32,000 bases of DNA from assembly GCF_000012925.1 (NCBI RefSeq), contig NC_007517.1, forward strand, positions 3,180,001 through 3,212,000, given 5' to 3'. Origin of the DNA: Geobacter metallireducens GS-15 (GTDB taxonomy: Bacteria; Desulfobacterota; Desulfuromonadia; Geobacterales; Geobacteraceae). Within the stretch, counting starts at the first letter, position 1; each line of letters opens with the position of its first letter. Position numbers and translations under genes: made by a program. Below the pieces are notes generated by a model. That model did no database searches and was not told the origin of the DNA. It was given only the letters and a program-made list of their open reading frames with translations. Shown here piece by piece: positions 8,220 through 21,000 of the stretch.

Positions 8220-11200
8220 CTACGCGGGAACCCGCTCGGCGATCAGGAGATAGGGAGCCGCTCCGGACCGGTTCCCCTGGCGGCAGTGCCAGACGTTGAA
8301 CCGGCCGGGGGGAAGGGCCGCTGCCCAATCCTCGACGGCGGCCCCCTCGTCGGCGCCACCGGGATGCCCCGTGTAGACCGCGACGGTTACGAGCCCCCCG
8401 GGGAGGAGGAGCGCCGCAGCCTGCTCCAGGCCGGCAATGGTGGTCTCGGGGGTGGTGACGGTCTCCCGGGGGGCACCGGGGAGAAATCCCAGATTGAAGA
8501 CCACGGCCCGGACCGGACCGGTGACCACCTCGGCAAGGCGCTCGTGACCGCCGTGAACGAGCGCGACCCGATCACGGCAACCAGCCTCGGCGAGACGCTC
8601 TTCCGTGGCGGCCAGGGCCTTTGCCTGGACGTCGAAGGCCCACACCCGCCCTTGCGGCCCCACCAACTGCGCCAGGAAGAGGGTATCGTGGCCGTTGCCG
8701 CAGGTGGCGTCCACGGCCCGGTCACCCGGCCTCAGGCGTTCCTGGAGAAAGAAATGCGCCAACTGCACGGCGCCGGAAAGTCCCCGGGACCGGGGACCAG
8801 GGACCGGGGACCGGGCAAAGGCATCAACCCTGAAACCTTCGTCTCTTCCTGAATTATTTCCGTTCATCGTCGCCTCTGCAATCGGTTGGCTTCTAAACCT
8901 GGTCCCCGGTCCCCGGTCCCGGCCCTTGACCAGCGTCAAAACCGCCGGAAGCACCAGCACGAAGGCCGCCTGGCAGGCCACCATCCCGAGGCTCATGACC
9001 GCGCCGATGGAGAATACTCCCTGGTGGTGGGCCACCATGAGGGCGCCAAAGCTCGCCATGATGGTAAGGGTGTTGTAGACGACCCCCAGGCCGGTGCTGC
9101 CCGTGATGACCGAGGCGGCGTCGCCGTCCTCGCGGCGGAAACGGTTGATGATGTAGATGCCGGAGTCCACGGCGATGCCGAGGATGAGGGGCATGACGAT
9201 GATGTTGGCGGAGTTGAAGCTGATCCCGAAAAGCCACATCCCCCCCACCATGAGAAGGATCCCCACCACGAGGGGAACGAGCCCCACGAGGGTGTAGGTG
9301 ACGCTCCGGAAGGTGACGAAGAGGATCACCACGATGGCGGCAAAGGCGTAGACAAAGGCCCGCAGGTAAGCGTCGCGCATGATGGTCATGGACTCGTAGA
9401 CCATGACCGGTTCGCCGTTGGCCCGGGGTGCCACGCTCCGCACCTGGTCCAGGAAGCGTTTCAGGGGCTCCCGCTCGAAAATCTCCTCCTTGGGGGCCAC
9501 CTGGAGGAGGTATTTCCCGCTTTTCCCCACAAACAGTTTCCGAAGCTGGGGCGGGATATCCGCCTCGGTCACCGGGGTGACGGCGAGGCTGTCGGCAAAC
9601 ATCCCGATCTTCTCCGGGAAGGAAGCGAGCATTCCCCCCTGGAAGTCCCGCAGCATCCCGAGGGCGTTTTTGTCCTTCTCCTTTTCAAGGGTCGCAAAGA
9701 AACGGTCGAGGGTGGCCAGGAAGGCGCCGACCCGCTTTGCTTCGGGTTTCTGTTCCTTTTCCAGGTAAAGCTTCAACCGCTCCACGGAGTTTCTGAAGTT
9801 CTCGAAGACCGTGGGGAGCTCCATGACCCGCAGGTCCTCCTCGTAGGGGGCGGGCTTCACGTCGGCCAGCTCGCGCCGCAGGGCAGCCAGCTCTGCAATC
9901 TTCGCCTCCTGGTCATCGGGGACAAAGGTGGCGAGGCTTACCACATGGTCAACGGCGGGGAGCGCTTCGAGGCGCCGGGTCAGCTCACGGGCCTCCGGGG
10001 CGGACGAGGCCACGACCTCGGCGAAGTAGCCCGAATTCTCCTTGCTCCGCATCAGCTTGTAGGCATACTCCACCGGCTCCAGCCCCTTGGCCTGGAGGTT
10101 CATGAGGTTGTAGTCGAACCGTGTCTGGACCAGGGGATAGATGGACGCGGCGCAAAGGATGAGGGTAATCCCGATGACCGTCTTCGGGTGGCCGAAGAGG
10201 AACCGCTCCAGGGCCTTCATCCGGGAAGAGCGGGCAAGAATGGTTGCGGCCCGGGCCTCCCGCTCCTCCTCCTTGCGCTTGCGGTACGGCGCCAGAAGTA
10301 CCAGGACCGCCGGCAGGACCGTAAAGGTGGCCAGGACGCAGACGCAGACCCCCAGCGCTGCGATGATACCCAGCTCTGAGATTCCCTTGAAATCAGTGAA
10401 GACGAAGGTGAAAAAGGCCGCGGCAATGGTGGAGGCGGCCATGACGATGGCCCAAATGTTGCGGTTGAGCCCCGTACTGATGGCCTCCAATTCGCCTTCC
10501 CCGAGCCCCAGTTCCTCCTGGTAGCGGAGCACCACCTGGATGCCGTACTCGATGCCGATGCCGATCAGCATGATGGCAAAGACCATGGAGAGGATGTTCA
10601 GGTGCCCCACCACCAGGGTCGCCAGGCCGAATGAGACACAGAGCGCCACGATGAGGGTCACCATGGCCGCCATGACGTTCAGGAACCCACGGAATGCCAG
10701 GAGGAGAAGCACCACCGTGAGGGCCAGGGAGAGGACGGTGGCGATGGTGATGTCCCGCTCGCTGGTGGCCATCTCCTCGTATTCGAGGACCGGGGTCCCG
10801 GTGAGCCCCACGGTCACCCCGGCAAACTCGGGGAGCGCCCTGAGGGCTTTGACCTCCTTGCGCACCGCGCCGATGGCCTCCACGGCCGGGACAAAGCTCC
10901 CGGGGTCCTTCACCGGCCGAACCGTCAGGATCTGCATCCGGCCGGCCCGGGCCAGGGCCGAATCCCCCCCGAGGAATACCTCCTCCAGGGAGAATGAGCC
11001 CTTCTTTCCCCCGCCGAAGGCGTCAATGCCGGTGCCGAGCTTGTCGAGCATGAAGGTGATGCCGGCCAGCTCAGCCTCCCCCCCCTTCCCGCCACCGGCC
11101 ACGTAGGCATCCATCCGGCCGGTCAGGTGGGTAAAGAGGGTCTGGACGGTGGGCGATGTTGCCAGCTCCTTGAGAACCGGCTTTGCCATGGTAAAGTTCT

Positions 11201-11618
11201 TCCGGAGGTTTCGGATATCCTCCAGAGGCATGAGGAGGAGGCCGTGCTCCTTGAAAAACGGCATCCCCCCGGGGAAAAAGACCTCACGGAACCGGGTCCG
11301 GTCCGCGGCCAGCTTCTCCTGGAGCCGTTCGCCGAAACGGGAGGCCGCGGCTGCGTCAGCGCTCTCGATGACGACCGCGATCTCTTCCCGGTCGCCGAAC
11401 TCGGCCCGAATGGCTCGATAGTCCTGCTGAAAGGGGGCGTTCTTCGGCATCAGGTCGTCCCGGCCCGTGAGGAACTCCATCCGCTCCTTCGTGTAGATCA
11501 CCGAGAGGACTGAAAGGAGGAGAGCAACCGCGAGAATCAGCCGCGGGTGGCGGGCAACGAACCCGAAAAGCCCGGTAAAGCGTTTCGTACCACTGTTCTT
11601 TTCCATATCGAATCGCAT
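8220..11618 (-). CDS. hpnN: HpnN-like RND (MMPL/hopanoid) transporter read in frame into a YtqB/MnmM-type class I SAM methyltransferase; single 1132-aa ORF as sequenced
   Basis: Residues 1 to about 895 have the 12-TM RND layout with two large periplasmic loops, and the gene is divergent from shc. Residues from about 950 to 1132 carry PGDRAVDATCGNGHDTLFLAQLVG...VFNLGFLPG...VYTGHPGG, typical of about 190-aa YtqB/MnmM methyltransferases. No stop separates the two parts. In-frame internal starts exist at ATG 8867 (GAGG upstream) and GTG 8768. The hpnN start could be ATG 11618 or ATG 11606. Confidence 0.75.
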   Translation of the reverse strand: MRFDMEKNSGTKRFTGLFGFVARHPRLILAVALLLSVLSVIYTKERMEFLTGRDDLMPKNAPFQQDYRAIRAEFGDREEIAVVIESADAAAASRFGERLQEKLAADRTRFREVFFPGGMPFFKEHGLLLMPLEDIRNLRKNFTMAKPVLKELATSPTVQTLFTHLTGRMDAYVAGGGKGGEAELAGITFMLDKLGTGIDAFGGGKKGSFSLEEVFLGGDSALARAGRMQILTVRPVKDPGSFVPAVEAIGAVRKEVKALRALPEFAGVTVGLTGTPVLEYEEMATSERDITIATVLSLALTVVLLLLAFRGFLNVMAAMVTLIVALCVSFGLATLVVGHLNILSMVFAIMLIGIGIEYGIQVVLRYQEELGLGEGELEAISTGLNRNIWAIVMAASTIAAAFFTFVFTDFKGISELGIIAALGVCVCVLATFTVLPAVLVLLAPYRKRKEEEREARAATILARSSRMKALERFLFGHPKTVIGITLILCAASIYPLVQTRFDYNLMNLQAKGLEPVEYAYKLMRSKENSGYFAEVVASSAPEARELTRRLEALPAVDHVVSLATFVPDDQEAKIAELAALRRELADVKPAPYEEDLRVMELPTVFENFRNSVERLKLYLEKEQKPEAKRVGAFLATLDRFFATLEKEKDKNALGMLRDFQGGMLASFPEKIGMFADSLAVTPVTEADIPPQLRKLFVGKSGKYLLQVAPKEEIFEREPLKRFLDQVRSVAPRANGEPVMVYESMTIMRDAYLRAFVYAFAAIVVILFVTFRSVTYTLVGLVPLVVGILLMVGGMWLFGISFNSANIIVMPLILGIAVDSGIYIINRFRREDGDAASVITGSTGLGVVYNTLTIMASFGALMVAHHQGVFSIGAVMSLGMVACQAAFVLVLPAVLTLVKGRDRGPGTRFRSQPIAEATMNGNNSGRDEGFRVDAFARSPVPGPRSRGLSGAVQLAHFFLQERLRPGDRAVDATCGNGHDTLFLAQLVGPQGRVWAFDVQAKALAATEERLAEAGCRDRVALVHGGHERLAEVVTGPVRAVVFNLGFLPGAPRETVTTPETTIAGLEQAAALLLPGGLVTVAVYTGHPGGADEGAAVEDWAAALPPGRFNVWHCRQGNRSGAAPYLLIAERVPA
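8784..8922. repeat. Inverted tracts of the heptamer GGGGACC (4 units at 8786-8815, 3 inverted units at 8898-8922) flanking the methyltransferase ATG
   Basis: Plus strand 8786-8815 is GGGACCGGGGACCAGGGACCGGGGACCGGG. 8898-8922 is CCTGGTCCCCGGTCCCCGGTCCCGG. Up to 16 consecutive Watson-Crick pairs are possible in at least two registers, with a loop of about 85-95 nt. Confidence 0.9.
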
Positions 11619-11838
11619 CCTTCATCTGTCGGTATCGGGCAAAACTCGCGAAGCGTACCATACCCCACCGGCAAAGACAATCTCCCCGCCCGAGCCGTCC
11701 CTTGTGCCCCATCGGCACGGGCAACACGGGAAAACTATGTTTTTTTTGTTAATTCTGTGCTAGAAGTACATGCTTATTTTTTCTCACTCATCCCGGCATC
11801 GGGAGAGAGTGTTCTGAGAATCAAGGAGCAGCATTTCG
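11619..11838. promoter_or_regulatory. Divergent hpnN / shc control region with an AT-rich patch and T-runs (about 11735-11800)
   Basis: This 220-bp spacer separates divergent starts, so promoters for both units must lie here. I could not find convincing -35/-10 or -24/-12 hexamers. AAGGAG lies 11 nt upstream of the shc ATG. Confidence 0.35.
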
Positions 11839-13878
11839 ATGAAGATTTCCAAGCATCCCATTTCACACGCACTCACCTCCTTCAACGAAACAGCGAAAGA
11901 GACAAAAGAGGAGCCGCAGAAGAAACGGGGGGGCAAGGTCCACCACCTCCCCGCCTCCATCTGGAAAAAGCGGGACGTGGAAACCACGAGCCCCCTCGAC
12001 CAGGCCATCAAACGGAGCCAGGAGTTCTTTTTGCGGGAGCAACTCCCCGCCGGGTACTGGTGGGCGGAGCTGGAGTCCAACGTCACCATCACCGCCGAGT
12101 ACGTCATCCTCTTCCACTTCATGGGGCTGGTGAACCGGGACAAAGATCGGAAGATGGCTACCTATCTCCTCTCCAAGCAGACCGAGGAGGGGTGCTGGTG
12201 CATCTGGCACGGAGGGCCGGGCGACCTCTCCACCACCATCGAAGCATACTTCGCCCTGAAGCTGGCCGGCTACCCCGCCGACCATCCGGCCATGCAGAAG
12301 GCCCGCACGTTCATTCTCGGGAAAGGGGGCATCCTCAAGGCACGGGTCTTCACCAAGATCTTCCTGGCCCTCTTCGGCGAATTCTCCTGGCTGGGGGTCC
12401 CCTCCATGCCCATCGAGATGATGCTCCTTCCCAACGGCTTCACCTTCAACCTCTATGAGTTCTCCAGCTGGTCCCGGGCGACCATTATTCCGCTCTCCAT
12501 CGTCATGGCCGAGCGGCCGGTGCGCAAGCTCCCCCCCTGGGCGAGGGTGCAGGAACTCTACGTGCGGCCGCCGCGCCCCATGGACTACACCTTCACCAAG
12601 GAAGACGGGATCCTTACCTGGAAGAACATCTTCATCGGCATCGACCATATCCTCAAGGTCTATGAGGCGAGCCCCATCCGCCCCGGCATGAAGAAGGCCA
12701 TGGCCATTGCCGAACAGTGGGTGCTGGACCACCAGGAGCCCACCGGCGACTGGGGCGGCATCCAGCCGGCCATGCTCAACTCGGTTCTGGCCCTCCATTG
12801 CCTCGGCTACGCTAACGACCACCCGGCCGTTGCCAAGGGGCTTCAGGCCCTGGCCAACTTCTGCATCGAGAGCGACGACGAGATCGTCCTCCAATCCTGC
12901 ATCTCGCCGGTATGGGACACGGCCCTGGCCCTCATGGCCATGGTCGACTCCGAAGTTCCCACCGATCACCCGGCCCTGGTGAAAGCCGCCCAGTGGCTCC
13001 TGGACCGGGAAGTCCGCAAGGTTGGCGACTGGAAAATCAAGGCCCCCAACCTGGAGCCGGGGGGATGGGCCTTCGAGTTCCAGAACGACTGGTACCCGGA
13101 CGTGGACGACTCGGGGATCGTCATGATGGCCATCAAGGATGTGAAGGTGAAGGACTCGAAGGCCAAGGCGGAGGCGATCCAGCGCGGCATTGCCTGGTGC
13201 ATCGGCATGCAGAGCAAGAACGGCGGCTGGGGAGCCTTCGACAAGGACAACACCAAGCATATCCTCAACAAGATTCCCTTCGCCGACCTGGAGGCCCTCA
13301 TCGACCCCCCCACGGCGGATCTTACCGGCCGGATGCTGGAGTTGATGGGAACCTTCGGCTACCCCAAGGACCACCCGGCCGCGGTGCGGGCGCTCCAGTT
13401 CGTCAAGGAGAACCAGGAACCGGACGGCCCCTGGTGGGGACGCTGGGGGGTCAACTACATCTACGGCACCTGGTCGGTGCTCTGCGGCCTCAAGGCCTAT
13501 GGCGAAGACATGGGACAGCCTTACGTCCGCAAGGCCGTTGAATGGCTCGCCGCCCACCAGAACCCCGACGGCGGCTGGGGTGAGTGCTGCGAATCCTACT
13601 GCGATCAGAAGCTGGCCGGCACCGGCCCAAGCACCGCCTCCCAGACGGGATGGGCACTCCTCTCCATGCTCGCCGCAGGCGACGTGGACCACCCGGCCGT
13701 GGCCCGGGGGATCCGGTACCTGATCGAGACCCAGCAACCCGATGGGACCTGGGACGAGGACCAGTTCACCGGAACCGGCTTCCCAAAATACTTCATGATC
13801 AAGTATCATATCTACCGGAACTGCTTTCCGCTCATGGCCATGGGACGCTACCGGGCGCTGAAGGGCCACAAGGGATAA
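11839..13878 (+). CDS. shc: Squalene-hopene cyclase, 679 aa
   Basis: Repeated QW motifs (e.g. QNPDGGWG, QEPDGPWWGRWG, QQPDGTWDE), the catalytic Asp-rich motif DVDDSG and GGWGAF are present. The length and the hpnA/hpnH neighbours are typical. Confidence 0.95.
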   Translation: MKISKHPISHALTSFNETAKETKEEPQKKRGGKVHHLPASIWKKRDVETTSPLDQAIKRSQEFFLREQLPAGYWWAELESNVTITAEYVILFHFMGLVNRDKDRKMATYLLSKQTEEGCWCIWHGGPGDLSTTIEAYFALKLAGYPADHPAMQKARTFILGKGGILKARVFTKIFLALFGEFSWLGVPSMPIEMMLLPNGFTFNLYEFSSWSRATIIPLSIVMAERPVRKLPPWARVQELYVRPPRPMDYTFTKEDGILTWKNIFIGIDHILKVYEASPIRPGMKKAMAIAEQWVLDHQEPTGDWGGIQPAMLNSVLALHCLGYANDHPAVAKGLQALANFCIESDDEIVLQSCISPVWDTALALMAMVDSEVPTDHPALVKAAQWLLDREVRKVGDWKIKAPNLEPGGWAFEFQNDWYPDVDDSGIVMMAIKDVKVKDSKAKAEAIQRGIAWCIGMQSKNGGWGAFDKDNTKHILNKIPFADLEALIDPPTADLTGRMLELMGTFGYPKDHPAAVRALQFVKENQEPDGPWWGRWGVNYIYGTWSVLCGLKAYGEDMGQPYVRKAVEWLAAHQNPDGGWGECCESYCDQKLAGTGPSTASQTGWALLSMLAAGDVDHPAVARGIRYLIETQQPDGTWDEDQFTGTGFPKYFMIKYHIYRNCFPLMAMGRYRALKGHKG

Positions 13879-13906
13879 CCAGCCAGTCGCAGAAACGGGC
13901 ACCTGC

Positions 13907-13934
13907 GTAGGGGCGGTTCAAGAACCGCCCCTAC
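13907..13934 (+). terminator. Strong GC hairpin GTAGGGGCGGTTC-aa-GAACCGCCCCTAC followed by ..TTTT (attenuator or partial terminator between shc and hpnA)
   Basis: The 13-nt arms are exact reverse complements. The T-run is only 4 nt and is displaced by 5 nt, so read-through is likely. Confidence 0.4.
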
Positions 13935-13956
13935 ATCAGTTTTGATAGAAGGAACC

Positions 13957-14943
13957 ATGAAGGTTTTCGTTACCGGCGCAACCGGCTTCATAGGCGCTAG
14001 CATAGCAAGGGAACTGCTGAAGGACGGCTGCCATGTCAGGGTTCTGGCCCGGCCCGGCTCCGACAGGCGCAATCTCGATGGCCTCGATGTGGAAGTGTGC
14101 GAGGGGGACCTCTGTTCCCCGGAATCCCTGGACCGGGGGGTCAAGGGGTGCGAGGTCCTCTACCACGCCGCGGCCGACTACCGCCTCTGGACCCGCAACC
14201 CCGCCGCCATGTACGCCGCCAACGTGGAGGGAACCCGCCACGTCCTGGACGCGGCCCTGCGGCACGGGGTATCCCGGGTCGTCTACACGAGCAGCGTCGG
14301 GACCCTGGGAAATCCCGGCGACGGCACCCCCGGCACGGAAGCCACCCCCGTCACCTTCGCCGACATGGTGGGGGACTACAAGAAAAGCAAATTTCTGGCG
14401 GAACGGGAGGCTGAGACGTTCCTGGCCCGGGGACTCCCCCTGGTCATCGTGAATCCCTCGACCCCGGTGGGCCCCCACGACGTGAAACCGACTCCCACCG
14501 GAAAGATCATCGTCGATTTCCTCAACCGCGCCATGCCCGCCTACCTGGACACGGGGCTCAACATCATCGACGTTGAGGACTGCGCCCAGGGACACATCCT
14601 GGCGGCTCAGCACGGCAGAATCGGCGAGAAGTACATCCTCGGCCACGAGAATCTGACGTTGCGGCAGATATTCTCTCTCCTCGAAACGGTTACGGGACTC
14701 GCAGCGCCGAAGGTGCGCCTCCCCTACTTACCTATCCTCGCAGCCGCCTACGCAAACGAGGCCCTGTCGCGGATCACCGGCAGGGAGCCCCTCATCCCGC
14801 TGGCAGGGGTGCAGATGGCCAGAAAATTCATGTATTTCGATTCGTCCAAGGCGGTGAAGGAACTGGGGCTTCCCCAGCGCCCGGCCGTCGAAGCCCTGGG
14901 GCGTGCGGTGGAATGGTTCCGCGCCAACGGATATGTACGGTAA
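13957..14943 (+). CDS. hpnA: Hopanoid-associated NAD-dependent sugar epimerase/dehydratase (SDR), 328 aa
   Basis: Rossmann motif MKVFVTGATGFIG, then RVLARPGSDRRNLDGLDVEVCEGDL, AADYRLW and YKKSK (YxxxK). Located between shc and dxs. ATG 13957 has GAAGGAA upstream. Confidence 0.85.
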   Translation: MKVFVTGATGFIGASIARELLKDGCHVRVLARPGSDRRNLDGLDVEVCEGDLCSPESLDRGVKGCEVLYHAAADYRLWTRNPAAMYAANVEGTRHVLDAALRHGVSRVVYTSSVGTLGNPGDGTPGTEATPVTFADMVGDYKKSKFLAEREAETFLARGLPLVIVNPSTPVGPHDVKPTPTGKIIVDFLNRAMPAYLDTGLNIIDVEDCAQGHILAAQHGRIGEKYILGHENLTLRQIFSLLETVTGLAAPKVRLPYLPILAAAYANEALSRITGREPLIPLAGVQMARKFMYFDSSKAVKELGLPQRPAVEALGRAVEWFRANGYVR

Positions 14944-14972
14944 ATATGGAGGGGCGCAATTCATTGCTCCCC

Positions 14973-14992
14973 GGGCGTGGTGAATCACGCCC
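14973..14992 (+). other. GC hairpin GGGCGTG-gtgaat-CACGCCC, preceded by a second imperfect hairpin at 14951-14972, in the hpnA-dxs spacer
   Basis: 7-bp exact arms. The 3' flank CGCCCCTAC is shared with the 13907-13934 hairpin. Confidence 0.4.
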
Positions 14993-15018
14993 CTACGCAA
15001 CCGATGAAGGAGAGCGTC

Positions 15019-16926
15019 ATGTACAAGCTGCTCGACACCATAACCGGCCCGGCCGATCTCAAGAATATTCCCCGGGAGGAGCTCCCGGGGCTGGCAGATG
15101 AAATCCGCCGGTTTCTCATCGAGACAGTGTCGCAAACGGGCGGCCATCTGGCCTCGAACCTGGGGGCAGTGGAGCTCTCCGTCGCCCTCCACTACTGCTT
15201 CGACTCCCCGGCCGACAAGCTCATCTGGGACGTGGGGCACCAGGCCTACACCCACAAGATCCTCACGGGTCGGCGCGAAAGCTTCCACACCCAGCGCCAG
15301 TACAAGGGGATCAGCGGCTTCCCCAAGCGGAGCGAGTCACCCCACGACGCCTTCGGGGCCGGCCACTCCTCCACCTCCATCTCGGCGGGGCTCGGCATGG
15401 CCGCGGCACAGGATCTGAAGGGGAGCGGCAGCCGGGCCATCGCGGTGATCGGCGACGGCTCCCTCACCGGCGGCATGGCCTATGAGGCCCTCAACCAGGC
15501 GGGGCACCTGAAGAAAAACCTGATCGTGGTCCTGAACGACAACGAGATGTCCATCTCCCAAAACGTGGGGGCCTTCTCCTCGTTCGTCTCCCGCAAGATG
15601 ACCGGCAGCGACTTCCGCAAGCTGAAGAAGGAGATGCAGGGCCTTCTGGAGAACATCCCGGCCATCGGGAAGGACATCCTCCACTTCGCCCGCCGGGCCG
15701 AAAACTCCCTCAAGGGGTTCCTCACCCCGGGGATGCTCTTCGAGGCCCTGGGCTTCGACTACATCGGCCCGATTCCTGGACACGACCTGCCGCAGCTCCT
15801 GGAGGTCTTCGAGAACGTGAAGGGGCTCGAAGGGCCGGTGCTCGTCCACGTCATGACCACCAAGGGGAAGGGGTACCAGCCGGCCGAGGAGAACCCGGCC
15901 GCCTTCCACGGGGTCGGCCCCTTCGACGTGGCCACGGGCAAGACCACCGGCGGCAAGCCGGGGGCGGCATCCTACACCGGGGTCTTCGGCGCGACCCTCG
16001 TGAAGCTGGCCGAGGAGGACGAGAAGATCATCGCCATCACTGCGGCCATGCCCGACGGCACCGGCCTCACCCCCTTCGCGAAACGGTTCCCGGAACGCTT
16101 CTTCGACGTGGGAATTGCCGAGCAGCACGCCCTCACCTTTGCGGCGGGCCTCGCCGCCGACGGGTTTCGGCCCGTGACGGCCATCTACTCCACCTTCCTC
16201 CAGCGGGCCTACGACCAGGTATTCCATGATGTCTGCCTCCAGAAACTGCCGGTGACCATGGCCCTGGACCGGGGGGGGCTCGTGGGTGACGACGGCCCCA
16301 CCCACCACGGCACCTTCGACCTCTCGTACCTGCGGCACCTGCCGGAGATGACCCTCATGGCCCCCAAGGACGAGAACGAGCTCCAGCACATGCTGAAGAC
16401 CGCCATCTACGCCGGCCGCCCCGTGGCGCTCCGCTACCCCCGTGGTGCCGGGTATGGACTTCCCCTTGACCAGACTATCCAGTCCCTGGAGATCGGCCGG
16501 GGCGAGCTTCTGACTGAAGGGGACGATGTCGCCATCGTGGCCATCGGTTCCACGGTCTATCCGGCCCAGGAGGCAGCGAAGCTCCTGGAAGCTAGGGGGA
16601 TCCGGGCAACGGTGGTCAACGCCCGCTTCGTGAAACCCCTTGACCGGGAGCTCATCCTCGGCGCGGCACGGCGGACCGGGTGCATCGTCACCGTGGAGGA
16701 GAACGCCCTCCAGGGAGGCTTCGGGAGCGCCGTCCTGGAGTTGCTGGCGGACGAAGGGATGACCGATGTGCGGGCCAAGCGGATCGGTATCCCCGACCGC
16801 TTCATCGAGCAGGGGCCCCAACCCCAGCTTCGCAAGGATCTGGGCCTGGACGGCGCCGGCATCGCCGCCACCGTCGAGGCATTTCTGACTGCAAAAGGAC
16901 AAGCGGCGCTGTCGCTGGTGAAATAA
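15019..16926 (+). CDS. dxs: 1-deoxy-D-xylulose-5-phosphate synthase, 635 aa
   Basis: N-terminus [15 protein letters not shown], then [28 protein letters not shown], the ThDP motif [15 protein letters not shown]...NDN and the transketolase C-terminal domain. GAAGGAGA lies 6 nt upstream of ATG 15019. Confidence 0.95.
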
Positions 16927-16935
16927 CCATTCGAA

Positions 16936-16953
16936 GGGGCGGACACGCGCCCC
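16936..16953 (+). other. Short GC hairpin GGGGCG-gacacg-CGCCCC in the dxs-hpnH spacer
   Basis: 6-bp arms. The flank CGCCCCCAC resembles the two hairpins upstream. Confidence 0.3.
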
Positions 16954-16986
16954 CACACAAGCATCAATGAAAGGAAGTACCGTTTA

Positions 16987-17985
16987 ATGCGTTTTCCCCT
17001 GAAATTGAACGCTGACCTCACGAAGTACATCATTTCCAACAAGGTGAAGAAGATCGAGAAGTTCCCCCTGGTCCTCATGCTCGAACCGACCCACCTCTGC
17101 AACCTGGCCTGCTCCGGCTGCGGCCGCATCCGGGAATACGCCGACACCATCCAGCAGATGATGAGCCTGGAGGAGTGCCTCCGCTCGGTGGACGAATGCC
17201 CGGCGCCGGTAGTCACCATCACCGGCGGCGAGCCGTTCCTCTACAGCCACATCTACGAGCTGATCCCGGCAGTCCTCAACCGCGGCAAGCACGTCTACCT
17301 CTGCACCAACGGCCTGCTGCTGGAAAAGGCCCTGGAGAACATCAAGGTTCACCCCAACTTCTATCTCAACGTCCACATGGACGGCCTCGAAGAGACCCAC
17401 GACCGGATCCTTGAACGGAAGGGAACCTTCAAGATCGCCATCGAGGGGATCAAAAAGGCCAAGGCCATGGGGTTCCGGGTCTGCACCAACACCACCATCT
17501 TCAAGGACACGGACCTGGTGGAGATCGAGATGCTCTTCTCCCTTCTGACCGACCTGGGGGTGGACGGCATCCTGGTGGCGCCGGGGTTCGATTACGAAGC
17601 TGTGGGGGAGAACCTCTTCCTGCAGCGGCGGGAAATCGAGAAAAAATTCGAGGAAGTCTACCGGATGAGCAAGCGGTTCCGCTTCTGGTCAACCCCCATG
17701 TATCTCCGCTTCCTCAAGGGGGAAAAGAAGCTCGACTGCACCCCGTGGGGAAACCCGACCCGCAACCCCCTCGGCTGGAAGGCCCCCTGTTACCTCATCA
17801 CCGACACCCACTACCCCACCTTCCGGGAGATGATGGAGAAGACCGATTGGGACAAGTACGGCGTGGGGAAAGACCCCCGCTGCGCCCAGTGCATGATGCA
17901 CTGCGGCTTCGAACCCACGGTGGTTTCCGAGATCGGGAAGAGCTGGAAGGATATTCTTGAGATGGCCATCTGGAACATGAGTTGA
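16987..17985 (+). CDS. hpnH: Radical-SAM adenosyl-hopene transferase, 332 aa
   Basis: LVLMLEPTHLCNLACSGCGRIREY (CxxxCxxC cluster), ECPAPVVTITGGEPFL, a C-terminal Cys-rich region, and hopanoid-locus context. Confidence 0.9.
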   Translation: MRFPLKLNADLTKYIISNKVKKIEKFPLVLMLEPTHLCNLACSGCGRIREYADTIQQMMSLEECLRSVDECPAPVVTITGGEPFLYSHIYELIPAVLNRGKHVYLCTNGLLLEKALENIKVHPNFYLNVHMDGLEETHDRILERKGTFKIAIEGIKKAKAMGFRVCTNTTIFKDTDLVEIEMLFSLLTDLGVDGILVAPGFDYEAVGENLFLQRREIEKKFEEVYRMSKRFRFWSTPMYLRFLKGEKKLDCTPWGNPTRNPLGWKAPCYLITDTHYPTFREMMEKTDWDKYGVGKDPRCAQCMMHCGFEPTVVSEIGKSWKDILEMAIWNMS

Positions 17986-18005
17986 CCGTCTCTGCGCCGG
18001 CAATG

Positions 18006-18042
18006 AAAAAAACCCGCTTACCATTGAGGTCAGCGGGTTTTT
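18006..18042. terminator. Bidirectional rho-independent terminator shared by hpnH (+) and the hybrid kinase gene (-)
   Basis: AAAAAAACCCGCT - 13-nt loop - AGCGGGTTTTT gives a 7-bp GC stem flanked by an A7 run and a T5 run, so a U-tract follows the stem on either strand. Confidence 0.8.
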
Positions 18043-18089
18043 CATTTGGTGCATGGGCAACCATTAAATCTGCAAAATGGTTGTAACAA

Positions 18090-21000
18090 TCATGTCCCCC
18101 CTGCCCGCCCGAACGTCACATCCGCCCTACCTGCACCCGTGTTGAGCGCCTGGCTGACCTTCCGCAACAGCTGCTCGCTGGTGAAAGGCTTCGGAAGGAA
18201 ATTGCCCCCTTCTTCCAGCCTGCAGTTGTGGATTTTTACCTCGTTGGTGTAGCCGGAAATAAAGACCACGGGCAGATCGAGCCGAAGCTCCTGCAGCCGC
18301 TCAAAAAGCTCAGGGCCGTTCATCCCCGGCATTATGACATCGGATAGCATCAGATCGAAGGCGTAGGGTGCAGCCTGCGCAATCTCGTATGCCTCGTCGG
18401 GATTCGGGGCAGCCAGCACTCCGTAGCCCGCGTATTTCAGCATCTGAACGATCATCTCCCTGACCATCCTGTTGTCCTCAACCACAAGAACGGTGCTGCT
18501 GTTTCCTGAATGTTCCGGCTGGCTGCCAGTGCTCTTTGACTCCGGGGCACTGGTTGATGCCGTATGGGCCTTTGCCGGCAGGTAGATGGTAAACGTGGTC
18601 CCTTTCCCCACGCGGCTTTCCACGGCAACATATCCATCATGCTGTTTCACGGTGCCGAAGACCGTTGCCAGCCCCAGTCCCGTTCCGTGGCCAACCTGTT
18701 TGGTGGTGAAAAACGGCTCAAAGATGTGGGACAGGGTTTCGTCATCCATGCCATGACCGTTGTCGGTAAAGGCGAGCAGGATGTGGGGCCCTGGCTGCAT
18801 GCCGGGATGGAGCCTGGCGTATTCGTCGTCCAGGAGAACGTGACCGGTGTTGATGGTGATGGTGCCGTTCCCTTTGATGGCGTCCTGGGCGTTCACCGCC
18901 AGATTGAGAAGCATCTGCTCGATCTGCCCCCGGTCGGCCATGACAGGGGCAGTGCCTGGGGCCAGATTCATGCGGATGGTGATGTTCTCCCGAATCGTGC
19001 ACCGCAGGATGTCATGGAAGGATTGGATTGCCTCGTTCAGGTCGAGGGGCTGCATGTTGAGTCTCTGCCGGCGACCAAAGGAGAGCAGTTTCTGGGTCAG
19101 GCCCTTGGCCTTGTGGGCGGTCTTGAGAATGCTTTCCGCCATTTGAGCCTCTGGCGTTTCTTGCGGAAGCCCCCTTTTGATCATGTCCGCATAGCAGAAA
19201 ATAGGGGTCAGCAGATTGTTGAAGTCGTGGGCGATTCCGCCCGCAAGCTGGCCAATGGCTTCGATCCTCTGAATGTGGCGAAGCTGTCCCTCCAGGTGTT
19301 CGCGCTGTTCCTCCTGGCGGATCCGGCCGATGGCAATGCTTGCCAGGTGCGCAGCCGACTCCAGCAGGGCACGTTCTCTATCATCCGGAGAGTGTTGCTC
19401 CCGGTGATAGACCGCGAAGGCCCCGAGCAGTTCGCCATCCGAGGAAAGAACCGGTTGGGACCAGCATGCCCTCAGCCCCGCTTCCCGTGCAGGCTGGAAC
19501 CCCTTCCAGTAGGGGTGGCACGTGATGTCATCGACGATTACCGGTTGCCTCAGGTGGGCCGCCGTGCCCGACGATCCCATCCCCCGCGCGATGCGCAGCC
19601 CGTGCACTGCCTGGTTGTACTCTTCCGGCAGACTGGGGGCGGCACCATGGAGAAGGCGCTTGCCGGCCTCATCGGCAAGGAGCAGGGATCCGATGGCACC
19701 GGGAATCTGCTGTTCCACAAAGTAGACGATCTGGTCGAGCAGTGTCGCGAGGGGAGCCCCGGTCGCCAGTTTCTCCAGTATCATCAGGCGGGCCTGTTCA
19801 CGCATTTCGGACCGTTTCCGTTCCCGTACATCCCGCGCAATACAGAGGATGAACGCTCCCCCGTCGCTCTCCATCGGGTGAGCGTGGACCTCGATGGGTA
19901 CCGAGGAACCATCCTTGGCCAGGAGCGCTGCATCGAACATGGCTTCGCCATCCCTCATGGCCAGCATCAGGTTGGTTTTCGTATGGTCAACGCTCTCCGG
20001 AGGCTCCAGGTCATGGAGCATCATATCCGTCAACTCGTCATGACTGAATCCGCTCATGCGGCAGAGTGCCTGATTGAAGTGCACCAGGCGCCCTTCATGA
20101 TCGATCTGCAGGATGGCGTCATTGGCGGCGTCAATCTGGGCCGCCTTGATCCGCAATCTCTCCTGGTGGCTGCGCAGGCCGGTCTGTGCGATATTCAGCC
20201 GGTCAAGGTGGAGGAACATGAGGCGTGTCAGGCTGACGATGACCAGGCAGAGACCGAGCGTTACAGCCCCCTGAAGGAGTGCCTTTCGGGTCCAGGGCTC
20301 AAGGACGTCGTCGCGATCGAGAGACACCACCGCCACTGCGGGAAAACGGGAAAGACATTTGTAGGAAATTATTCGCGGAGTTTTGTCGACGATACTGGAC
20401 CTGGCGTGAAACGTACCAGAAGGCGACGCGGGCAGCCAGATGCGGAACAGTTCCGAGTTCCGCATATTCGATCCGTAGATATTGTGCACATAGGGTTCAA
20501 ATACCAGCGGGGTGCCGTCGGTGCGGAATACGGCAATCCTTCCATGGGGGCCGAGACTTGAGGCGGTGAAGAATTTCTTGAAATAGTCGACCTCAAAGGC
20601 GACCGCCAGAAGTCCGTCGAATGCCGTACCGGGGGGGGTGAGGGGCCGTATGAGGTTGAAGCGCCATCGTTTTACCAACCGGCTCATGACCGGTTTGCTC
20701 AGGTACAGATCCGCTCCGGGATTTTCGAGGTAATGGCGGAAGTACTCACGGTCGGAAACGTCGATCTGCCGGGGTGGATACCCCTGGGAGTTGTTGAACA
20801 TAATGCCGTTCTTGCCGGTGATGAACAGGGCACCGATCTGCGGCGAATCCCCTCCCTGCCGCCGCAGAAGCTCGTAGAGTTCCGCCTGCGGAATCCGCTC
20901 GGCCCCCCCCGCCATTCTGATATCATGAATCAGATCATTGATTACCCGGTCGGTCTCGGCAAAGGCGCTTTCCGTATGCTCGCTGAGGGCCTGCGCGTAT

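Follow-up and report, generated by a model that had tools for sequence, protein, structure and literature searches.

Loss of one repeat unit at the junction of the fused hpnN and mnmM genes of Geobacter metallireducens GS-15

Introduction

In Geobacter metallireducens GS-15, the gene for a hopanoid transporter, hpnN, runs without a stop codon into the gene for a tRNA-modification enzyme, mnmM, and a short tract of heptanucleotide repeats lies where the two join. Is this fusion genuine, how did it arise, and does the tract still switch between fused and separate products? A first-pass annotation of the locus saw in it either a slipped-strand contingency switch or a collapse or expansion error in the sequence.

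Phase-variable tracts of tetra-, penta- and heptanucleotides constitute the simple-sequence contingency loci of Haemophilus, Neisseria and Campylobacter. The Rickettsia palindromic elements (RPE) and other REP- and MITE-like repeats exemplify palindromic repeats whose insertion into genes keeps the reading frame.

The heptamer of GS-15 belongs to a family that has been described. The Gmet_H4## family of G. metallireducens comprises 49 copies with four tandem GGGACCG repeats, which occur intergenically and within genes (many intragenic copies are given in Table S4) and were termed predicted regulatory RNA elements (Aklujkar et al. 2009, PMC2700814). One copy, H403, was reported to form the linker in a Ddl-FtsQ fusion protein, and two others, Gmet_H434 (+, 3188778-3188822) and Gmet_H435 (-, 3188884-3188928), are listed in Fig. 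S2 of that paper, which places the pair 5' of Gmet_2819 and does not tie the missing unit to the fusion (PMC2700814). Herein, we describe the hpnN-mnmM junction in a 32,000-nt stretch of the GS-15 chromosome, referred to as the window (chromosome coordinate = window coordinate + 3,180,000).

Results

On the minus strand of the window, positions 8220-11618 form one uninterrupted reading frame of 1132 codons (1132 aa from the first ATG). The first-pass annotation had this frame open through the tract into the methyltransferase, and all coordinates were verified. The public record of the fusion (ABB33037.1, WP_004513985.1, Q39RT7) starts at 11606 and has 1128 aa and 122.4 kDa. This product and a 215-aa product were both found by look-up in the protein collection, in which neither of two alternative MnmM starts (182 aa and 180 aa) was present; the contig index held no exact match to the 1132-aa, 1128-aa or 215-aa product. 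With the fused protein public and both tracts catalogued before, the fusion itself is already known, and the hpnN-mnmM junction of GS-15 is a genuine, stable, previously annotated fusion.

The HpnN and MnmM domains are both intact in the fusion, according to profile searches and PDB matches. Residues 1-899 (8922-11618, minus strand) correspond to a hopanoid-associated RND/MMPL transporter. The TIGR03480 (HpnN) model scored 1060.1 bits against a cutoff of 751.85, aligning residues 14-900 with profile positions 2-859 of 862, and the stricter HpnN equivalog model NF052374 gave 466 bits, under its cutoff of 1100. The HpnN structures 5khn and 6wu0 align with residues 17-899, and the hydropathy profile has the final hydrophobic segment stopping near residue 899, with KGRDR next. 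Residues 950-1132 (8220-8771, minus strand, stop codon included) correspond to a class I SAM methyltransferase of the MnmM type. NF053511 (MnmM, tRNA mnm5s2U34 methyltransferase; cutoff 135) matched at full length (profile positions 3-182 of 183), scoring 200.6 bits for the fused protein and 205.4 bits for the 215-aa form; PF06962 scored 146.8 bits against this domain, and the PDB matches were YtqB/3eey and the YtqB structures 8h0s and 8h1a. Both scores being above the curated cutoffs, the N-terminal part is predicted to be the HpnN transporter (TIGR03480) and the C-terminal domain an MnmM-type methyltransferase.

The linker between the two domains has 50 residues and is rich in Arg, Gly, Pro and Ser. 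The tryptic peptide across the junction, SQPIAEATMNGNNSGR (residues 906-921 of the 1128-aa protein), is diagnostic of the fusion alone because it begins upstream of the internal ATG. None of the representatives that two protein searches returned was a fused homologue. In the PDB, related MmpL transporters exist as C-terminal GFP and lysozyme chimeras, and the fold therefore tolerates a C-terminal passenger.

The junction consists of two repeat arms and a loop. Arm 1, which is Gmet_H435 (8898-8922, minus strand), encodes the linker start GRDRGPGTR and has three units, of which the first two are identical (GGGACCG) and the third deviates (GGGACCA), followed by GG; TRF reported it at 8901-8920 with period 7, 2.9 copies and 100% matches. 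Arm 2, which is Gmet_H434 (8784-8815, minus strand) and escaped the first-pass annotation, has four inverted heptamers (CGGTCCC on the coding strand) and encodes SPVPGPRSR; TRF reported it at 8786-8815 with 4.3 copies of GGGACCG on the plus strand. The two arms form an inverted repeat of 25 nt with 92% complementarity, 89 nt apart, and their pairing yields a hairpin of 22-27 bp that encloses an internal Shine-Dalgarno (SD) sequence and ATG. RNA folding of 8760-8945 (minus strand) gave -97.1 kcal/mol over 186 nt (z = -5.5). The 82-nt loop between the arms (8816-8897, minus strand) contains a TAG, an SD-like GAGG (8876-8873), a 5-nt spacer and an ATG, and is read in GS-15 as linker ...FRSQPIAEATMNGNNSGRDEGFRVDAFA. 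The TAG (8893-8895, minus strand), which ends HpnN in four-unit relatives, is out of frame in GS-15; the ATG (8865-8867, minus strand) is the annotated MnmM start in relatives (215/220 aa), and a G. metallireducens record, WP_238379037.1, has MnmM starting at this codon (215 aa, 22.6 kDa).

Exact copies of GGGACCGGGGACC in the 32-kb window are confined to the two junction tracts, and a perfect 20-nt run of period 7 is very unlikely to arise by chance in 32 kb. Given this perfect run, its uniqueness in the window and its match to a 49-copy family, the tract is no chance feature. The heptamer contains no stop codon in any of the six frames. An Rfam search of 8600-9100 returned no family, just two sub-threshold chance matches to miRNA-precursor hairpins, and no promoter-like site was found at the junction. 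An intrinsic terminator was considered here and discarded, the terminator-like matches being only a small hairpin in the conserved mnmM 5' coding sequence and the big stem lacking a T-run.

The Fig. S2 rows of H434 and H435 correspond to window positions 8778-8822 and 8884-8928 in both sequence and position (offset 3,180,000). In the family list, some rows of which lose or gain one letter in PDF-to-text conversion, four recognisable units are present in 45 of the 47 rows that were legible, and H435 is the sole one of these 47 with three units followed by non-repeat sequence. Arm 2, with its 4.3 copies, has the four repeats of the family; arm 1 is a truncated member, still listed as Gmet_H435.

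Unit number fixes the reading frame. When arm 1 was given 2, 3, 4, 5 or 6 units by simulation, the outcome was stop, fusion, stop, stop and fusion, respectively. Two units led to a stop at codon 916 after the tail ...GPGLEANRLQRRR, with the TGA overlapping the ATG as ATGA; four units led to a stop at codon 911 after the tail ...GPGTGDQV, at GTT TAG; five units gave the same frame as two, and six units gave the fusion again. The simulated edits reproduced the earlier claims that loss of one unit creates the ATGA overlap and that gain of one unit brings in GTT TAG at 8895-8893, and they agreed that the fused frame is the only one of the three in which HpnN does not stop here.

Eight independent Logan assemblies over arm 1, from different SRA runs, were identical to the window across the tract and had three units. 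One of these contigs, L087, was seen in at least 20 samples, and in contig L086 the frame is open through to 8784. The Sanger reference of 2005 has three units as well, as does a second GenBank protein record. Every Logan contig terminates inside the repeat region and no short-read contig covers both arms; the longest contigs break at the four-unit arm 2, and the shorter arm 1 (25 nt) is read unambiguously by the contigs covering it. The P0003 contig (L132), which begins right past arm 1, was left out of the unit counts. Length variants of arm 1 were absent from every assembly consensus, a level at which low-frequency variants could escape. GS-15 HpnN with the tail of one unit more or fewer was absent among about 15 billion proteins, a weak result given that a four-unit arm would probably break short-read contigs. 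The GS-15 junction is a genuine, fixed 4-to-3 unit deletion, not an assembly error.

Geobacter grbiciae DSM 13689 (L085) is 98.7% identical to the window over 14,040 nt, and the sole indel in these aligned bases is 7 nt inside arm 1: at 8911/8912 (minus strand), the G. grbiciae sequence is longer by the 7 bases GACCAGG (coding strand). Its genes are separate, with an HpnN of 906 aa ending in TAG and an MnmM of 220 aa. Four units and an HpnN ending at GTT TAG are likewise found in two uncultured Geobacter lineages (L081-L083 and L084), which share ~84% identity with the window; the count of four is held in the four-unit orthologues despite base substitutions within the units. The state that the first-pass annotation had only deduced for a gain of 7 nt, in which HpnN stops at GTT TAG and the loop ATG starts a separate methyltransferase, is the actual state of G. 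grbiciae and the two uncultured lineages. Because this state exists in relatives, the aligned sequences indicate that a heptamer indel here has, at least once in evolution, carried the locus from one state (fused or separate) to the other. A stable fusion, with the same repeat number and an uninterrupted reading frame everywhere, had also been envisaged; it holds within GS-15-type DNA and fails among close relatives, which differ by one unit. The comparison demonstrates the deletion, shows it to be fixed in GS-15-type DNA and establishes that the relatives have four units and separate genes; the direction, from four units to three, rests on parsimony and the family consensus.

Among 55 Geobacteraceae loci with both genes, none is fused, the HpnN stop lies 3-21 codons past the conserved C-terminal block (LVK in the window), and the stop and start codons overlap in 16. 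The element is absent from G. hydrogenophilus, L009, L011 and L052. Between GS-15 and G. grbiciae, the element region is 84% identical, compared with 97-99% for most flanking segments and 94.4% for the adjoining 180 nt downstream; the loops of G. grbiciae and L084 share 95% identity. The element region and its flanks differ in history, and G. grbiciae may therefore have acquired its junction by import and not by inheritance. A metagenome scan with GGGACCNGGTTTAGARGC for more orthologous junctions was set aside, its 37 matches being 36 chance matches and one contig known before.

Discussion

We consider it quite probable that a module replaced the ancestral junction and that the loss of one heptamer then fused hpnN to mnmM. 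The ancestral hpnN-mnmM junction would have comprised a stop codon, an SD and a GTG start in about 30 nt. In the G. metallireducens group, a module of ~140 nt, composed of two inverted H4 copies around the 82-nt loop, would have taken the place of this short junction. In the resulting four-unit state, which is the normal one, arm 1 encodes the final dozen residues of HpnN and leads directly into TAG, the loop provides the SD and ATG of MnmM, and arm 2 accounts for some of the 30 residues by which MnmM is extended at its N-terminus. Arm 1 of GS-15 would subsequently have lost one heptamer (from four to three), the simplest mechanism being slippage between identical units during replication. This loss puts the TAG out of frame; since the heptamer is stop-free in all six frames and no stop interrupts the MnmM frame in the loop, HpnN now continues through the 50-residue linker into the complete MnmM domain. 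We infer that GS-15 produces the 122-kDa fusion, in which the cytoplasmic C-terminus of the transporter would carry the tethered methyltransferase. Translation from the retained SD and ATG probably continues to yield free 22.6-kDa MnmM. The fusion change appears to be neutral or mildly deleterious, not regulatory.

The inverted pair could instead be mainly regulatory, with an mRNA hairpin hiding the mnmM SD and ATG until hpnN-finishing ribosomes melt arm 1, in which case unit number would act via stem length and not via the frame. This is possible, if doubtful. The stem is very stable (-97 kcal/mol), the outer stem is retained in all four element-bearing lineages, TAG directly follows arm 1 in the four-unit state, and the family was classed in the genome paper as predicted regulatory RNA elements (PMC2700814). 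However, no Rfam family matched, and the covariation term (+0.25 from four sequences) is uninformative, the arms being the family consensus; moreover, a regulatory hairpin is compatible with a fusion by slippage, not an alternative to it, and leaves the fusion unexplained. It is very unlikely that the polarity is reversed, that is, that the three-unit fusion is the older state in the clade and a selected, functional bifunctional protein, and that the four units of G. grbiciae, L081 and L084 arose in each case by gain of a unit or by import of the junction. Simple parsimony is unsafe here because the junction region is recombinant; the tight linkage and frequent translational coupling of hpnN and mnmM across Geobacteraceae hint at a functional tie, and another H4 element is the linker in an accepted fusion protein. 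Nevertheless, the fusion is seen only in GS-15-type DNA, the family norm is four units, every element-free relative has separate genes, and the two protein searches gave no fused representative.

The switch proposed in the first-pass annotation, in which heptamers are gained and lost at a useful rate to toggle fused HpnN-MnmM and separate proteins, found no support, and we judge it most improbable. Like the contingency loci, the GS-15 repeat has a unit that is not a multiple of 3 and lies where unit number decides the frame, two of the three frames ending HpnN at the junction; two of its units are perfect copies, and GS-15 and G. grbiciae differ by one unit, so slippage has occurred at least once. 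Unlike the long perfect tracts of those loci, it is very short and partly imperfect (2.9 copies, 20 nt; three units, two of them identical), and no length variation was seen within the strain, either at consensus level (eight assemblies from separate runs, the reference and the second GenBank record) or, as weaker evidence, among called proteins. It also differs in joining housekeeping genes rather than surface or restriction-modification genes, and in belonging to a dispersed family stereotyped at four units, a number that the four-unit orthologues hold although substitutions make their tracts imperfect. The other proposal, according to which one of four genuine units was collapsed in the reference, is scarcely credible. 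A GC-rich repeat within a strong hairpin is a typical trouble spot, and the short-read contigs all break nearby, but the agreement of the Sanger reference, the second GenBank record and the eight Logan assemblies on three units, in an arm short enough to be read unambiguously, refutes it.

Compared with its own family, the H434/H435 pair is arranged as a (+) copy followed by a (-) copy, as in ten other pairs readable in the list, and like H403 it is located in the linker of a fusion protein; the three units of H435 depart from the norm of four. H4 elements resemble RPE in being short, multicopy, present between and inside genes, and translated as an extra peptide; they can form hairpins and are stop-free, so reading frames survive their insertion. 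They differ from RPE in that their arms are tandem heptamers, not a unique palindrome, and that they are not known to move, to be linked to a transposase or to carry a target-site duplication. Either transposition or recombination would fit the empty site of G. hydrogenophilus and the element's separate history. Apparent movement of the element at hpnN-mnmM can be explained by ordinary homologous recombination, and independent transposition of the 140-nt module as the cause of the patchy distribution was not retained, homologous recombination fitting the data equally well. As in stop-loss fusion of coupled neighbours, adjacent, co-oriented and often overlapping genes have become one reading frame via a small indel. 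Here, by contrast, the indel corresponds to a single repeat unit, in an element that had earlier replaced the ancestral junction, and the internal SD and ATG survive, so that fused and free products are both possible.

A broader proposal, which we consider unlikely, is that H4 tracts act as evolutionary fusion and fission toggles, single-unit slippage or exchange of the inverted-pair cassette repeatedly joining or separating neighbours (HpnN-MnmM, and Ddl-FtsQ at H403) in the G. metallireducens group, and that slippage may continue in the GS-15 tract, at a rate that is low yet of biological relevance. Within this proposal, H4 tracts are seen as lying mostly at junctions of co-oriented genes.

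The type strain GS-15, much used in electromicrobiology, has a hopanoid transporter fused to a tRNA-modification enzyme, and its closest sequenced relative does not. The cause, a one-unit loss, is relevant to comparisons of Geobacter strains for hopanoid export or tRNA mnm5s2U modification, and the choice of annotation at this locus (fusion, pseudogene or two genes) should consider a genuine one-unit loss in a repeat element. The locus is, more broadly, a clean example of how a stop-free repeat at an operon junction lets a 7-base slip create a two-domain protein.

The HpnN-MnmM fusion and its linker

The first-pass annotation had read hpnN, which encodes a hopanoid RND transporter, as continuing without a stop through a heptamer tract into a methyltransferase gene. 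This reading was borne out, as the minus-strand hpnN::mnmM ORF at 8220..11618 is stop-free over 1132 codons. Residues 14-900 of the fusion match HpnN (TIGR03480, 1060 bits, cutoff 751.85), and the solved HpnN structures 5khn and 6wu0 align to residues 17-899; the second domain, residues 950-1129, scores as a tRNA methyltransferase of the MnmM/YtqB family (NF053511, 200.6 bits, cutoff 135; also PF06962) and matches YtqB structures too. The heptamer-tract region encodes the 50 residues between the two domains. The 1128-aa product starting at 11606 is present in the protein collection as ABB33037.1, EHP85285.1, WP_004513985.1 and UniRef100_Q39RT7, and the 215-aa product from an internal start is on record as WP_238379037.1. 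In the representative library, an MnmM-like C-terminal domain follows an unidentified N-terminal part of about 350 aa in P0189, P0210, P0216, P0229, P0240, P0255, P0276 and P0282 (537-570 aa); these are other natural fusions of an MnmM-like methyltransferase, unrelated to HpnN.

Close by, two ORFs of 679 aa each overlap almost fully on opposite strands (11839-13878, plus; 11863-13902, minus). The plus-strand ORF encodes squalene-hopene cyclase; the identical protein on L085, the contig of G. grbiciae DSM 13689, has PF13249 and PF13243 domains. The antisense ORF presumably arises spuriously from the high G+C content.

The heptamer arms and their repeat family

On the minus strand, arm 1 reads GGGACCG-GGGACCG-GGGACCA-GG (8898-8922), that is, three units, and is followed by a TAG (8895-8893) that is out of frame in GS-15. 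The two alternative frames described in the first-pass annotation were reproduced by in-silico editing: with two units HpnN stops at codon 916, its TGA overlapping the internal ATG (8867-8865, minus), and with four units it stops at codon 911 (GTT TAG). Five units gave the same outcome as two, and six the same as three. Arm 2, which had been overlooked, consists of four units in inverted orientation at 8784-8815. Together the arms form a 25-nt inverted repeat of 92% complementarity, 89 nt apart, and the RNA fold of 8760-8945 (minus) reached -97.1 kcal/mol (z = -5.5 against shuffles). The outer stem has about 22 pairs, and the TAG, an SD-like GAGG (8876-8873, minus) and the ATG lie in the loop that it encloses. 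This inverted pair with its loop, about 140 nt, exactly fills the gap left between the HpnN and MnmM profile matches. The heptamer GGGACCG has zero stop codons over six frames, encoding G/P/T/D/R on one strand and R/S/P/V/G on the other, and the MnmM frame is open across the loop. A terminator-like hairpin (GCGCC...GGCGC followed by ATTTCTTTCT) was also seen at 8756-8773 (minus), inside the 5' coding region of mnmM, which is conserved; this match is probably fortuitous, with 2 hits versus 0.6 expected.

The G. metallireducens genome paper describes a GC-rich element of four tandem GGGACCG repeats at 49 intergenic and intragenic sites, tagged Gmet_H4## (PMC2700814). Row Gmet_H434 of its Figure S2 (plus, 3188778-3188822) carries window sequence 8778-8822, and row Gmet_H435 (minus, 3188884-3188928) carries 8884-8928. 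These rows place the window at 3,180,001-3,212,000 of the GS-15 chromosome; the protein search hits were from Geobacter. Four recognisable units are present in 45 of the 47 legible rows; in H445 the first unit is degenerate, and H435 is the sole row with three units followed by unrelated sequence. H4 copies lie mostly between co-oriented genes, and the plus copy precedes the minus copy in all 11 legible pairs, so that the G-rich arm comes first on either strand (Figure S2, Table S4, PMC2700814). This uniform orientation suggests that H4 pairs arise as units. The spacing between the 45-nt windows of a pair varies from overlap (H405/406) up to about 390 nt. Table S4 lists H403 as a linker between fused proteins, in a Ddl-FtsQ fusion (PMC2700814).

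The junction in related genomes

The adjacent, co-oriented hpnN-mnmM pair is conserved in Geobacteraceae, with 55 loci among contigs L001-L066 having both genes close together. HpnN stops 3-21 codons past its conserved C-terminal block (LVK in the window) in 55/55 of these loci, none has a fused gene, and stop and start codons overlap in 16 (ATGA, GTGA, TAATG, TAGTG). The pairing of a hopanoid transporter with a tRNA mnm5s2U methyltransferase is unexpected, there being no obvious functional link.

The heptamer element is absent from G. hydrogenophilus DSM 13691 (94-96% nucleotide identity to the window) and from contigs L009, L011 and L052. Their junction is short, ...GGGAAGAGG TGA GGGGGGAGGC GTG AGG AGC AGG GGA CTT..., comprising stop, SD and GTG start. 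At this empty site (L004:4290-4330 in G. hydrogenophilus) the whole 140-nt module is missing and the ancestral stop-SD-GTG junction is kept. Besides GS-15, four lineages carry the element: G. grbiciae, L133 and two uncultured ones (L081-L083 and L084) whose identity to the window is about 84%. Since the module is missing at 94-96% identity yet present at 84%, its presence does not track flanking-gene similarity.

The frame predicted for a gain of one unit occurs in nature. Arm 1 of G. grbiciae, L081 and L084 contains four units and is directly followed by the GTT TAG that ends HpnN; a separate MnmM begins either at the loop ATG or 15 nt before it (215 or 220 aa). The more distant L133 (280-440) has a decayed module with degenerate heptamers on both sides, and its HpnN TGA overlaps the MnmM GTG as GTGA; HpnN ends thus differ among lineages within one module.

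Uniformity of the three-unit state

An exact copy of the neighbouring squalene-hopene cyclase protein (11839-13878, plus) was found on 23 contigs. Nine Logan short-read contigs (L086-L094), all from different SRA runs, were collected; one recurs in at least 20 samples. All nine contain the 30-nt window anchor just upstream of the tract and agree with the window as far as they run; L086, the one contig compared from end to end, shows 100% identity across 6,770 nt and keeps the fused frame open down to 8784. Three units are present in all eight contigs covering arm 1, with no sign of switching at the consensus level. Every contig ends inside the heptamer/hairpin region, at varying points (8784-8916), which we infer to result from k-mers shared across the H4 family and poor coverage; in G. 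metallireducens data, assemblies appear to break systematically at H4 elements. The first-pass annotation had also considered a 7-nt collapse or expansion error. Because the independent assemblies all have three units, assembly error is excluded, and the probability of a sequencing or assembly artefact is negligible.

Divergence from G. grbiciae

The alignment of G. grbiciae with the window spans 14,040 nt at 98.7% identity. It contains a single indel, of 7 nt, which falls within arm 1 after window position 8911. The flanking segments are mostly 97-99% identical, with 94.4% over the 180 nt immediately downstream; the element (window 8780-8929) reaches only 84% and its loop 79%. In the loop, G. 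grbiciae and L084 share 95% identity, though the L084 flanks are only about 84% identical, and G. grbiciae resembles the element-free L011 in the 40 nt that follow arm 2. The element has a history separate from that of its flanks, and these comparisons point to cassette exchange at this junction or to recombination acting locally.

Over a stretch of about 7.5 kb in the hopanoid cluster (11000-18499; shc, HpnA-like epimerase, dxs and a radical-SAM/DUF3463 gene), GS-15 and G. grbiciae have zero mismatches, and the 500-nt bins beside this stretch have 1-37. Such a mosaic suggests that the two lineages recombined recently.

Origin and consequences of the fusion

Relative to its nearest relative, GS-15 has lost one heptamer, which puts the TAG out of the HpnN frame. 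We consider it likely that the fusion is a fixed, non-switching strain mutation. Slippage involving the first units, which are identical, may account for the loss of the heptamer. The predicted product is an HpnN-linker-MnmM protein of 122.4 kDa, in which the methyltransferase would hang off the cytoplasmic C-terminus of the transporter. RND proteins have a cytoplasmic C-terminus, and the KGRDR after the last hydrophobic segment agrees with the positive-inside rule. The PDB contains MmpL transporters with GFP or lysozyme fused at the C-terminus, which shows that passengers at this end are tolerated. Free MnmM could still be produced from the retained GAGG-N5-ATG.

The slipped-strand contingency switch raised in the first-pass annotation, which the frame logic would allow, is very improbable given the length of the tract, the stereotypy of the H4 family, the four units kept in orthologues despite substitutions, and the uniform GS-15 data. 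No GS-15 HpnN protein carrying an extra unit or lacking one was among about 15 billion catalogued proteins, which is weak evidence. We think it unlikely that H4 tracts repeatedly toggle genes at operon junctions between fusion and fission, or that some low rate of slippage persists in the tract. Parsimony is less safe because the junction history is recombinant, which lends something to a reversed polarity in which the fusion was selected; however, the fusion is seen in GS-15-type DNA only and no fused representative appeared among the protein search matches, and we hold this order of events to be improbable. A regulatory hairpin, compatible with a fixed unit loss, is an attractive but unsupported proposal: in the four-unit state it may couple mnmM translation to hpnN termination. 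Neither informative covariation nor an Rfam family was found for it.

The fused ORF (ABB33037.1/Q39RT7) and its repeat copies (H434/H435) are already public and catalogued. Little is added beyond this: compared with G. grbiciae and two further lineages, GS-15 lacks one unit, which explains the fusion, and the predicted state with one more unit is found in nature.
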